A stretch of 64,000 nt of DNA from Escherichia coli (GTDB lineage: Bacteria; Pseudomonadota; Gammaproteobacteria; Enterobacterales; Enterobacteriaceae), in the NCBI RefSeq assembly GCF_036507355.1, contig NZ_AP027877.1; one strand, given 5' to 3'. The stretch's first letter is position 1. Each line of letters begins with the position of its first letter. Position numbers and translations under genes: made by a program. The notes under the pieces are model-generated. The model had not been told where the DNA came from. It was given only the letters and a program-made list of their open reading frames with translations, and ran no database searches. Shown here in pieces: positions 19,888 through 22,825 of the stretch.

Positions 19888-20905
19888 CGCTCGAGAGAAA
19901 GGAATCAGCGAGACGAATAAATTCACCGGTGTTTTACTATTAGGCACGGCGTTACTGGCGGGATGTGTCGACCGGGAAGGGTACTATAACAGCGTCAGGG
20001 AAGAAGAGAGCCATGGACTGACGTCTCTGCGGGGGCAACCTGCATTACGTTACAGCGATGATTGGTCAAGATGGCCGAGAGTGTACGGCGCTACAGCCTT
20101 ATACCCGCTGTATGCCTCCGCGTATTATAAATTAGTACCCGAGCCAAAAGATAAGGATCGAACCTCGCTGGCCTGGCAGGCGTATGGTTTGCAGCAAACC
20201 CGAACAGCTGAAGCCTACGATAGTCTGATTAAAGGTTCCGCGACGGTTATTTTTGTTGCACAACCGTCGGAAGGACAGAAAAAACGTGCAGAAGAAGCGG
20301 GTGTTAAACTGAAATATACCGCTTTCGCCCGCGAAGCCTTTGTCTTTATCGTTGATATTAATAACCCGGTAAATTCTCTCTCTGAGCACCAGGTTAAAGA
20401 TATTTTTAGCGGCAAAACTAGCCGCTGGAATAAAGTAGGTGGTAGTGACGAACATATAAAAGTCTGGCAGCGCCCTGAAGATTCTGGAAGCCAAACGATT
20501 ATGAAGGGGTTGGTTATGCAAGACACCCCAATGCTGCCAGCTAAAAAATCCACTGTGATTGATCTTATGGGCGGTTTAATTACTGAAGTTGCCGACTATC
20601 AAAACACGCCATCTTCCATTGGGTACACCTTCCACTATTACGTCACTCGTATGAATGACAATATGCTCAAAATGCGCAAGCAGATTAAACTTTTGGCTAT
20701 AAATGGCGTTGCGCCTACCGAGGAAAATATCCGCAACGGCACTTATCCATACATTGTGGATGCCTATATGGTGACGCGTGAAAATCCCACGCCGGAAACG
20801 CAGAAATTTGTTGACTGGTTTATAAGTCAGCAGGGGCAACAGTTGGTAGAGGATGTGGGGTATGTGCCGCTGTATGAAGCATCCCCCGAATCATCAGGAC
20901 AATAA
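19850..20905 (+). CDS. PstS-like substrate-binding lipoprotein, paralogue of the upstream gene's C-terminal domain; start uncertain
   Basis: 351-aa ORF; lipobox LLAG|C about 35 residues in; strong similarity to the C-terminal domain of the upstream gene (FVAQPSEGQKKRAEEAGV..., QRPEDSGSQT, IGYTFHYY); 5' end overlaps the upstream gene by 38 nt. Confidence 0.7.
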   Translation: MWDMCRCIQQWNNAREKGISETNKFTGVLLLGTALLAGCVDREGYYNSVREEESHGLTSLRGQPALRYSDDWSRWPRVYGATALYPLYASAYYKLVPEPKDKDRTSLAWQAYGLQQTRTAEAYDSLIKGSATVIFVAQPSEGQKKRAEEAGVKLKYTAFAREAFVFIVDINNPVNSLSEHQVKDIFSGKTSRWNKVGGSDEHIKVWQRPEDSGSQTIMKGLVMQDTPMLPAKKSTVIDLMGGLITEVADYQNTPSSIGYTFHYYVTRMNDNMLKMRKQIKLLAINGVAPTEENIRNGTYPYIVDAYMVTRENPTPETQKFVDWFISQQGQQLVEDVGYVPLYEASPESSGQ

Positions 20906-21442
20906 TGATGAATATAATCAGACTTTATATTTATCCGTTATTTCTCGGCTTTGTTATTGTGCCGTTGTTGGTGTGGCCGATGGTGGTTGCGCTGGCTGCT
21001 TGTATTATCACGCTGAGTTTTCTGGGGGAAATGCTGTTCTCAATCCCGCTCATGATCAGGCGTATTTCACTTCTGCAATTACAACTTTGGTTATCGGCTG
21101 AATATGCGCTTTTCTTCTGTGTAATGTGTTGCGTTGGTTGGCAATTTACTCGTAGAACTCAATCTGAATTGAAAAGCAGGCTCCATTGTTGGTTGGTATT
21201 CGCACCGGTCTATTTATGGTTGATCCTCTGGAATATCATTTTTTACATCGCGCCAGCGAAAATTGCGTTGCTGGAAAGTATCCGCAATTTCTTTCTGCTT
21301 GTTGTCTGGCTACCCCTGAATTTTTCGCCATTTTGGCCTCAGCCGTGGACGGATTTTATCGGTCCAATAAGCGCACAGTGAGGTAGCCTGAGTTTAACGG
21401 ACACTCCTTCCTGAAATAGAATGGCATCAGAAGGAGCTAATA

Positions 21443-21745
21443 ATGAGCAGAAAAACCCAACGTTACTCTAAAGAGTTCAAAGCCGAAGCTGTCAGAACGG
21501 TTCTTGAAAATCAACTTTCGATCAGTGAAGGCGCTTCCCGATTATCTCTTCCTGAAGGCACTTTAGGACAATGGGTTACCGCCGCCAGAAAAGGGCTCGG
21601 TACTCCTGGTTCCCGCACGGTGGCTGAACTGGAATCTGAAATTCTGCAACTGCGTAAGGCGTTAAATGAAGCTCGCCTTGAGCGAGATATATTAAAAAAA
21701 GCAACAGCGTATTTTGCACAGGAGTCGCTGAAAAATACGCGTTAA
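21443..21745 (+). CDS. IS3-family transposase OrfA (HTH DNA-binding)
   Basis: 100-aa ORF MSRKTQRYSKEFKAEAVRTV... with a leucine-zipper-like C-terminus. Confidence 0.85.
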   Translation: MSRKTQRYSKEFKAEAVRTVLENQLSISEGASRLSLPEGTLGQWVTAARKGLGTPGSRTVAELESEILQLRKALNEARLERDILKKATAYFAQESLKNTR

Positions 21746-22599
21746 TCGAACAATGGCGACAACAATTTCCCATTGAAGCGATGTGTCAGGTATTTGGTGT
21801 ATCCAGGAGCGGTTATTACAACTGGGTACAGCATGAACCCTCAGACAGAAAACAAAGTGATGAGCGGCTAAAACTGGAGATTAAGGTGGCACATATCCGC
21901 ACTCGCGAAACATATGGAACCCGGCGGCTCCAGACGGAGCTGGCAGAGAATGGCATCATCGTTGGTCGTGACCGACTGGCACGTCTTCGTAAGGAGCTAA
22001 GGCTACGCTGTAAGCAGAAACGCAAGTTCAGAGCGACTACGAACTCGAACCACAATCTGCCAGTTGCGCCAAATCTGCTGAACCAGACGTTCGCTCCTAC
22101 AGCACCAAATCAGGTCTGGGTGGCGGACCTGACGTATGTTGCCACACAGGAGGGATGGTTGTACCTCGCTGGCATCAAAGATGTTTATACGTGCGAAATT
22201 GTCGGCTACGCCATGGGAGAGCGCATGACAAAAGAGCTGACAGGTAAAGCCCTGTTTATGGCGCTCAGGAGCCAGCGCCCACCTGCCGGGCTAATCCACC
22301 ACTCTGATCGAGGTTCACAGTACTGCGCATACGATTACCGGGTCATACAGGAGCAGTTTGGTCTGAAAACATCAATGTCGCGTAAAGGTAACTGTTACGA
22401 CAACGCTCCGATGGAAAGCTTCTGGGGAACGCTGAAAAATGAGAGCCTGAGCCACTATCGTTTTAATAACCGGGATGAAGCCATCTCAGTAATACGGGAA
22501 TACATTGAGATTTTCTACAATCGTCAGCGTCGTCACTCTCGTCTGGGGAATATCTCCCCGGCAGCCTTCAGGGAAAAATATCATCAGATGGCTGCTTAA
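21700..22599 (+). CDS. IS3-family transposase OrfB (DDE catalytic domain), expressed as an OrfAB fusion by -1 frameshifting; first in-frame ATG at 21781
   Basis: The -1 frame is open from 21700; motifs D...D...E (VWVADLTYV, HHSDRGSQY, CYDNAPMESFWGTLK); slippery A7G run at 21694-21701 inside orfA. Confidence 0.8.
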   Translation, partial: SNSVFCTGVAEKYALIEQWRQQFPIEAMCQVFGVSRSGYYNWVQHEPSDRKQSDERLKLEIKVAHIRTRETYGTRRLQTELAENGIIVGRDRLARLRKELRLRCKQKRKFRATTNSNHNLPVAPNLLNQTFAPTAPNQVWVADLTYVATQEGWLYLAGIKDVYTCEIVGYAMGERMTKELTGKALFMALRSQRPPAGLIHHSDRGSQYCAYDYRVIQEQFGLKTSMSRKGNCYDNAPMESFWGTLKNESLSHYRFNNRDEAISVIREYIEIFYNRQRRHSRLGNISPAAFREKYHQMAA

Positions 22600-22825
22600 A
22601 AAAAGAACAAATGGTAGTGTCCGCTATTGCCAGTACACCTCACAGCTTGGTTTTGCGTTGGGATATTATTGCCAGTGGCGCAGCAAAAATAGATGCCAGA
22701 TACGGAAGTGGAGTGAGTGGGGAACGTGCTTAAGTTTTGTTACGTTGGGTATGATGGCGTGGGCTTTGCGGTAATTCCCTGAATCAAAAAGTAGGTCAGA
22801 TTGTTGACAACGTGGCACTTTGTTC

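Follow-up and report, generated by a model that had tools for sequence, protein, structure and literature searches.

An IS600 copy splits the last gene of a three-gene cluster between glgP and glpD in Escherichia coli

The three-gene cluster and its split third gene

The window, a 64-kb stretch of E. coli DNA, is collinear over its entire length with E. coli B REL606 at ~98% identity, and the nearest complete E. coli genome reaches 99.0% identity over 7.4 kb. Between glgP and glpD, it carries a co-directional cluster of three genes, the last of which is present in two parts:

18370..19887, + strand: gene 1, encoding a membrane domain of ~200 aa at the N-terminus and, after it, a substrate-binding domain of the PstS family (PBP_like_2)
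19913..20905, + strand: gene 2, a PstS-family lipoprotein whose signal peptide ends in LLAGC
20905..21378, + strand: 5'-terminal fragment of gene 3 (158 codons), encoding an orphan membrane protein, with 0 mismatches to REL606 and PapM-32-1
22646..22774, + strand: orphaned 3'-terminal fragment of gene 3, consisting of 42 codons and the TAA stop (129 nt), with 0 mismatches to PapM-32-1 and 1 to REL606

The RefSeq start of gene 1 lies 3 codons downstream of the one given here, and its binding domain is recognized by TIGR02136 (4.6e-35) as well as by Pfam PF12849 on identical contigs. Gene 2 starts with ACG in the window as compared to the ATG annotated in other strains, and the only in-frame upstream ATG is located at 19850. 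A phosphate-binding ABC transporter operon of the PstS family was considered for the cluster and ruled out, since genes 1 and 2 score 121 and 119 bits against TIGR02136, below its cut-off of 206.6, and since no ABC permease or ATPase genes are found in the cluster, in REL606, or in the larger E. albertii island.

Gene 3 begins on the last base of the gene 2 stop codon (TAATG). Joining 20905-21378 to 22646-22774, which removes a 1264-bp element together with one copy of the trinucleotide CAG, yields a 603-nt ORF of 200 codons plus stop, and its peptide is exactly the one quoted in the first-pass annotation, which had described an IS insertion splitting the third operon gene with both halves otherwise intact. 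In agreement with this, the restored gene is identical to the annotated allele of PapM-32-1 in 603/603 nt and differs from that of REL606 by a single base. With the element in place, the ORF comprises 158 codons and is closed by a TGA (21379-21381) consisting of bases 1-3 of the element, as had likewise been proposed. The accompanying statement that the last 43 residues are replaced holds with respect to the truncation itself; the number of lost residues is 42, with 43 codons being reached only if the stop is included, and none of them is replaced.

The orphaned 3' part contains most of the top-conserved motif of the gene 3 family, (SAQ)LGFALGYYCQWRSKNR, as well as the final hydrophobic helix. 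Because most of the conserved motif and the last predicted helix are lost, the 158-residue product most likely represents a null or badly impaired allele.

The inserted element

The element that separates the two parts of gene 3 is an IS600 copy oriented in the direction of the operon, with the following features:

21376..21378, no strand: left copy of the target-site duplication, CAG, 3 bp
21379..22642, + strand: IS600, IS3 family, 1264 bp
21379..21405, no strand: left terminal inverted repeat (IRL), compared with the reverse complement of 22616-22642
21394..21422, + strand: promoter-like site TTAACG-17-TAGAAT upstream of orfA, a pattern match from a consensus scan (9/12)
21443..21745, + strand: orfA, 100 aa, with HTH_Tnp_1 (Pfam PF01527, recorded on the 100%-identical contig L010)
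21694..21700, + strand: A7 slippery run (A AAA AAA), a putative -1 frameshift site joining orfA to orfB
21781..22599, + strand: orfB, 272 aa from its first ATG in a frame open from 21700, with a DDE/rve integrase-like catalytic domain
22616..22642, no strand: right terminal inverted repeat (IRR), CA-terminated
22643..22645, no strand: right copy of the target-site duplication, CAG, 3 bp

Members of the IS3 family measure ~1.2-1.55 kb, have 5'-TG...CA-3' terminal inverted repeats, and duplicate 3-4 bp of the target; their orfA and orfB partly overlap and are connected by a programmed -1 frameshift at an A-rich heptamer. All of these hallmarks were recognized in the element, which agrees with the family in its length, its TG...CA ends (TGAGG at the start and CCTCA at the finish), its orfA/orfB arrangement, its HTH and rve domains, its 3-bp duplication, and its near-identity to IS600. 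The inverted repeats are imperfect, matching at 19 of 27 terminal positions, and the CAG duplication is perfect, corresponding to a single CAG in the empty site of REL606 and PapM-32-1. Furthermore, OrfB matches the NF033516 model (transpos_IS3) with 334.7 bits and an E-value of 7.4e-100 (cut-off 160), OrfA aligns with the N-terminal part of the same model, and the Pfam domains rve, rve_2, rve_3, and HTH_21 are recorded for orfB on contig L010. A -1 shift at the A7 run results in an uninterrupted OrfAB of 385 aa, and such frameshifting would be expected at this position from the general behavior of the IS3 family. The promoter-like site upstream of orfA is presumably the element's own promoter, to judge from its sequence.

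Over all 1264 bp, the element is identical (100%) to plasmid-borne IS600 copies annotated in S. sonnei, including 53G, and in E. coli, the name resting on the PGAP label of these identical copies, "IS3-like element IS600 family transposase". It is, therefore, a fully intact isoform of IS600 and not a new IS. IS600 was first described in Shigella sonnei, and the present copy corresponds to it throughout, in sequence, ends, orfA/orfB, rve domain, and 3-bp duplication; the sole difference from the known copies is the insertion site, which is particular to the present lineage. No second IS600 copy was found within the 64-kb window.

Distribution of the insertion and erosion of the island

The uninterrupted sequence is present in at least 2052 of 5426 complete E. 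coli genomes, and the restored 200-aa protein is encoded on 740 contigs. The junction between IS600 and gene 3, however, occurs in none of the 5426 complete genomes, and an exact search of the GTDB species representatives did not find it either. Base for base, the same junction was identified in four contigs, namely L005 (NCBI GCA_905398585.1), L010 (Logan run SRR20550224), which covers the left junction and the entire IS600 to its last base, and the ENA contigs L011 and L014. The sources of the exact truncated protein carry the label E. coli. Together with the single IS and the lack of other rearrangements across the 64-kb window, this makes a Shigella origin look unlikely. The insertion is thus not private to one isolate but fixed in a circulating lineage. 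In the metagenome contigs L011 and L014, the sequence flanking the junction shows 5-9 SNP differences. This leaves three explanations: some recombination or mutation took place after the insertion, IS600 entered the site on two occasions, or these contigs are chimeric.

An insertion hot spot was considered as well, since six further contigs (L006-L009, L012, and L013) terminate precisely at the insertion site and contain no IS sequence. These were not counted as evidence of insertion because the exact look-up with the 158-aa protein selects for contigs ending at this position; for the 58-kb isolate contig L006, a break caused by the IS is possible. Found in a handful of draft and metagenome assemblies but in none of the 5426 complete genomes, the junction constitutes a lineage-specific marker that could be used for strain typing.

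The insertion appears to be young in evolutionary terms, as IS600 and both gene halves are undecayed and none of the complete E. coli genomes in the analysis contains the junction. In this qualitative sense, the recent origin suggested in the first-pass annotation is borne out by the identical IS600, the perfect duplication, the fully restored gene, and the lack of the junction among complete genomes.

The three-gene form is itself the deletion remnant of a larger island, with the window carrying the deletion fusion, and it is intact in many genomes. The E. albertii island contains four extra genes, and other strains carry IS1A or ISEc43 at the locus. K-12 keeps only yzgL (b3427), which lies at the same position between glgP and glpD and represents another inactivated state of the island; this remnant matches only positions 18255-18599 and 22715-22988 of the window. 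While K-12 has lost the cluster through a deletion of ~4 kb and cannot revert, the window has kept all of the sequence and is affected by the IS interruption only. The accessory island is thus eroding repeatedly, with the IS600 insertion as one more step, and the locus offers a tidy example of stepwise island erosion.

Interpretation and the gene 3 family

With near certainty, the locus reflects the transposition of an intact IS600 into the last gene of the glgP-glpD three-gene cluster at codon 158/159, truncating a 200-residue membrane protein. IS600 would have moved by copy-out-paste-in, in line with the IS3 family, and its insertion would have created the 3-bp CAG duplication typical of that family. 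Translation would then end at the TGA supplied by IS600, shortening the protein from 200 to 158 residues as a plain truncation. The window aligns collinearly with REL606, with the element as its sole large indel, and the interruption is therefore not a matter of chance.

Two readings that would dispense with an interrupted gene have very little in their favor. That gene 3 naturally ends at the left end of the IS, with an unrelated 129-nt fragment in frame by accident, is a negligible prospect, and our search for support of it found none. In RefSeq, the 603-nt CDS of REL606 (ECB_RS17335) and PapM-32-1 (G6Z93_RS01705) extends over the insertion point without a break, the sequence is contiguous in the at least 2052 complete genomes mentioned above, and the 199-aa homologues of E. 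albertii and E. marmotae possess a conserved tail. The alignment to uninterrupted relatives, which the first-pass annotation had named as a check, therefore favors its reading, and the normal end of the gene was not found at the left end of the IS. Hardly more probable is an assembly artefact in which a repeated IS600 copy was misplaced into a gene that is in reality intact. IS elements are classic sources of misassembly, but the exact IS600 ends are flanked by a perfect 3-bp duplication and the same left junction occurs in the independent assemblies L005, L010, L011, and L014.

More weight, although still little, can be given to a regulatory or adaptive role of the insertion, either through outward transcription or as a reversible off-switch that is reset by IEE-mediated precise excision. 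Such a switch has been documented for IS600 in lacZ of STEC O121:H19, where IEE excision restores the split gene (PMC9397093). The two cases share the same element and the inactivation of a chromosomal gene by simple insertion with both halves intact and restorable, and the perfect duplication would permit precise reversion here as well. However, the lacZ case comes with delayed lactose utilization and a demonstrated IEE-mediated excision, whereas gene 3 is without a known function. Regarding outward transcription, which had been suggested on the first pass, an outward-facing -35-like TTGCCA is found 10 bp inside the right IS600 end, and a mechanical ORF (22505-22774) runs from IS600 in frame into the 3' fragment of gene 3. 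On the other hand, neither threshold nor relaxed consensus scans of the right end returned an outward sigma-70-like promoter, with all candidates below the scan threshold and the best at 8/12, and the + strand downstream offers no gene to be driven, as the element is followed by the 129-nt gene 3 remnant, a REP-rich spacer, and convergent glpD. The suggestion is therefore unlikely to hold, and the locus is moreover dispensable in many strains including K-12. As gene 3 is followed only by convergent glpD, the insertion would not be expected to have polar effects on other genes; a simple scan for an intrinsic terminator downstream of gene 3 returned none.

A more serious candidate, albeit one that we consider rather unlikely, is that the cluster was already non-functional and that IS600 was a neutral hit in a pseudogenized locus. 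This would be in line with the three-gene form being a deletion remnant, with the ACG start of gene 2, and with the many strains that lack the locus or carry another IS there. However, gene 3 is under purifying selection across species, the restored allele does not differ from intact ones, and many genomes have preserved the three-gene form undamaged. Furthermore, contig L011 has the same IS600 junction yet retains the ATG of gene 2, which suggests that the IS600 insertion preceded the start-codon change.

Returning to the insertion of IS600 into a formerly intact gene, this is an ordinary and well-understood type of mutation, and the finding is of little weight beyond correct annotation. The appropriate annotation of the region 20905-22774 is a single pseudogene disrupted by an IS, together with the IS600 copy itself, instead of a 158-aa gene and an unexplained fragment. 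In addition, the allele with its intact halves provides a ready-made natural knock-out for the study of the gene 3 family.

Homologues of gene 3 have lengths of 196-200 aa in E. coli, E. albertii, and E. marmotae. With a dN/dS of 0.22-0.37 overall and 0.30-0.54 in the lost tail, gene 3 presents itself as a real coding gene subject to purifying selection across species. On either side of the cut, residues 156-167 (SAQ.GFALGYYC) show no variation except at position 159. The known members of the family come from Escherichia isolates, apart from one divergent metagenome homologue that retains the SAQ.GFALGYYC motif, and an exhaustive profile search of 1.84 billion representatives returned only 41 matches, mostly fragments of the same family. 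Comparisons with Pfam, NCBIfam, and PADLOC resulted in no credible match, a weak NCBIfam match having been discarded at 19 bits against a cut-off of 120, and the literature on ES036/CssrF contained nothing relevant. An AlphaFold2 model from a 14-sequence alignment was too poor to use (pLDDT 45, pTM 0.26).

The motif P-[IV]-x-A-x-[IL]-x-F-[AS]-L-G-Y is common to gene 3 and the N-terminal domain of gene 1, where it occupies the same residue numbers (154-165). Tentatively, and at a likelihood that we place well short of even, gene 3 may be a free-standing paralogue of the gene 1 N-terminal membrane domain, and the island a system pairing membrane modules with PstS-like binding domains that was lost repeatedly and independently in E. 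coli lineages through deletions, IS1, ISEc43, and IS600. If so, the IS600 allele would represent a revertible knock-out of natural origin in which precisely the signature motif is lost.

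An IS600 copy within an orphan Escherichia membrane-protein gene

Throughout its 64 kb, the window is collinear with E. coli B REL606 (identity ~98%), running from the yhhX/yhhY region (with RyhB) through glgBXCAP, a three-gene cluster, glpD, glpEGR, rtc, mal, feo, ompR-envZ, and pckA to mrcA, and an IS600 element in the third gene of the cluster is the sole large indel between the two. The RyhB sRNA, which is expected in this chromosomal region, is present at full length (1400-1464, + strand; 83 bits).

Features of the cluster and of the inserted element
18370-19887, + strand: gene 1, membrane-anchored PstS-like protein
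18829-18864, + strand: motif shared with gene 3, residues 154-165 of gene 1
19913-20905, + strand: gene 2, PstS-like lipoprotein
20905-21378 and 22646-22774, + strand: gene 3, membrane protein, split by IS600
21366-21378 and 22646-22667, + strand: motif shared with gene 1, residues 154-165 of gene 3
21379-22642: IS600
21394-21422: promoter-like site from a pattern scan, at the element's left end, 5' of orfA
21443-21745: orfA, 100 aa, HTH_Tnp_1
21781-22599: orfB, 272 aa, 334.7 bits to the IS3 transposase model NF033516 (cut-off 160 bits)

The 1264-bp element begins with TGAGG, ends with CCTCA, carries imperfect terminal inverted repeats (19 of the first 27 positions match), and is bordered on both sides by CAG (21376-21378 and 22643-22645). 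It is 100% identical over its whole length to Shigella sonnei and E. coli plasmid copies annotated as 'IS3-like element IS600 family transposase', and is IS600 itself rather than a relative. Besides the two reading frames, an A7 run (21694-21700) was found at which a computed -1 shift yields a 385-aa OrfAB without interruption, and rve-family domains are recorded on a public contig 100% identical to the element. All defining features of an IS3-family element are thus present, and this copy, the only one within the window, looks fully intact. The truncation of chromosomal genes by IS3-family insertions is a textbook phenomenon, and the event described here is of this known kind; the insertion site is of minor interest as a lineage marker.

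As proposed in the first-pass annotation, removal of the element and one CAG copy restores a 603-nt ORF of 200 codons, encoding exactly the peptide quoted there. The same annotation considered both gene halves intact, which is borne out by the identity of the restored gene to that of strain PapM-32-1 (603/603 nt); a single base differs from REL606. As a refutation, it had named related genomes in which the gene normally ends at the position of the IS left end. Instead, a continuous 603-nt CDS ('hypothetical protein') spans the insertion point in the REL606 and PapM-32-1 annotations, at least 2052 of 5426 complete E. coli genomes contain the uninterrupted sequence, and 740 public contigs encode the restored protein. 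IS600 therefore hit a real gene.

Consequences for gene 3 and the downstream region

Gene 3 homologues of 196-200 aa, sharing 78-88% identity, were found in E. coli, E. albertii, E. marmotae, and cryptic Escherichia clades. No family match was obtained in Pfam, NCBIfam, or PADLOC, and an exhaustive profile search returned only 41 representatives, mainly fragments; therefore, gene 3 represents an orphan family whose known members come from Escherichia isolates, apart from one divergent metagenome homologue. The hydropathy profile shows 4-5 strongly hydrophobic segments within the first 140 residues, and the AlphaFold model (pLDDT 45) was too poor for use. Pairwise comparisons gave dN/dS values of 0.22-0.37 for the whole gene and 0.30-0.54 for the 42 lost codons.

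With IS600 in place, the ORF comprises 158 codons and ends, as previously noted, at a TGA formed by the first 3 bases of the element (21379-21381). The accompanying claim that the last 43 residues are replaced needs correction: 42 residues are lost (43 codons if the stop is counted) and none are substituted, leaving a plain truncation. The cut falls inside the family's best-conserved segment, in which S156, A157, Q158, G160, F161, A162, L163, G164, Y165, Y166, and C167, followed by K172, N173, and R174, are invariant and of which the divergent metagenome homologue retains GPLSAQSGFALGYY. Since the insertion takes away most of this signature motif as well as the last predicted helix, loss of function of gene 3 is likely. 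A putative, purely mechanical 89-codon ORF (22505-22774, + strand) starts with TTG inside IS600 and continues past the element's right end in the frame of the 42-codon gene 3 tail.

The suggestion that the element could drive outward transcription was not supported. A sequence scan revealed no sigma-70-like promoter directed outward from the right end (best candidate 8/12), where a -35-like TTGCCA in the right repeat lacks a usable -10 partner, and there is no + strand gene downstream to drive. As only the 129-nt gene 3 remnant, a REP-like spacer (read from the sequence by eye), and the convergent glpD follow, a polar effect on other genes would not be expected. The spacer contains a 43-nt match to the Rfam sRNA family ES036 (CssrF) between the ends of gene 3 and glpD (22862-22904, + strand; 43.6 bits against a gathering score of 37.6), downstream of IS600 and co-oriented with the cluster; a literature search on ES036 found nothing. 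Reversion through precise excision would be conceivable, because IEE-mediated excision of IS600 restores lacZ in STEC O121:H19 (PMC9397093).

Age and spread of the insertion

The proposed recent origin of the insertion is supported at the sequence level by four observations: the element is identical to other IS600 copies, the CAG duplication is perfect, neither gene half has undergone any change compared to an intact allele, and the junction is missing from all 5426 complete E. coli genomes (0/5426), the nearest of which reaches an identity of only 99.0% in the insertion region. Other public assemblies share the insertion: its left junction was found in an NCBI draft assembly (L005), which is 100% identical to the window over 3.5 kb, in a Logan contig (L010) covering the gene start through the whole element, and in two ENA metagenome contigs (L011 and L014). 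In the latter two, 5-9 flanking positions, including the gene 2 start codon, do not match the window; this would fit an insertion older than these changes or recombinational imports, two independent hits at the site, or chimeric contigs.

Six further contigs from different samples (L006-L009, L012, L013) end at the insertion site or 1 base beyond it, without IS sequence. Most of these ends are probably explained by the look-up itself, which used the exact product and so favours contigs that stop there; L006, a 58-kb isolate contig, may have been broken by an IS in another background.

Erosion of the glgP-glpD island

Genes 1-3 are co-directional, with a 25-nt gap between genes 1 and 2 and a 1-base overlap (TAATG) between genes 2 and 3, which makes their co-transcription plausible. 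The PstS-like binding domains of genes 1 and 2 score under the family cut-off and the cluster contains no permease or ATPase gene; by these predictions, it is not a canonical phosphate transporter.

The composition of the island varies. E. albertii carries four extra genes (375, 236, 262, and 258 aa; L017 1015-4498) between genes 2 and 3. Pfam, NCBIfam, and PADLOC gave no credible match for any of the four, and the 262-aa and 258-aa proteins look, by eye, like paralogues. Another E. coli retains gene 1, the 258-aa gene, and gene 3, and E. marmotae has all three genes, with a 259-bp gap between genes 2 and 3. K-12 keeps only the cluster edges, annotated as yzgL (L015 2520-3133, matching 18255-18599 and 22715-22988 of the window), which is the fused remnant of a deletion that took nearly the entire cluster and most of gene 3 with it. 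The final ~10 codons of the window's gene 2 (...EASPESSGQ, about 20869-20905) derive from the 3' end of the 258-aa gene, the mark of a deletion fusion, and the window cluster is itself a remnant. Other complete E. coli genomes carry IS1A (H62, H68) or ISEc43 (H67) in the same cluster, which has been hit repeatedly by IS elements. Given these deletion remnants and insertions, the IS600 hit is one more step in the recurrent erosion of this accessory island.

At the same residue positions as gene 3, the membrane domain that forms the N-terminus of gene 1 carries the motif P-[IV]-x-A-x-[IL]-x-F-[AS]-L-G-Y, and hhalign matched gene 3 to this domain over 94 columns (69% probability, E = 4e-5) with very shallow profiles. 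The 375-aa protein of E. albertii has an N-terminus clearly homologous to the gene 1 domain (32% identity, E = 8e-13). The shared motif and profile match hint at an uncharacterised modular system that is repeatedly being lost.

The start codon of gene 2 (19913-19915) is ACG, compared to the annotated ATG in REL606 and PapM-32-1; E. marmotae and L011, a contig with the same IS600 junction, likewise have ATG at the aligned codon. A Shine-Dalgarno-like AAGGA is still present upstream, and the sole upstream in-frame ATG (19850) falls within the 3' end of gene 1. The ACG may represent a second lesion in the cluster. Compared to REL606, gene 1 shows 65-72 mismatches/kb, with 0-2 in the adjacent genes 2-3 and 5-45 in the flanks, which suggests that it is mosaic or hypervariable, through recombination or diversifying selection on its product.
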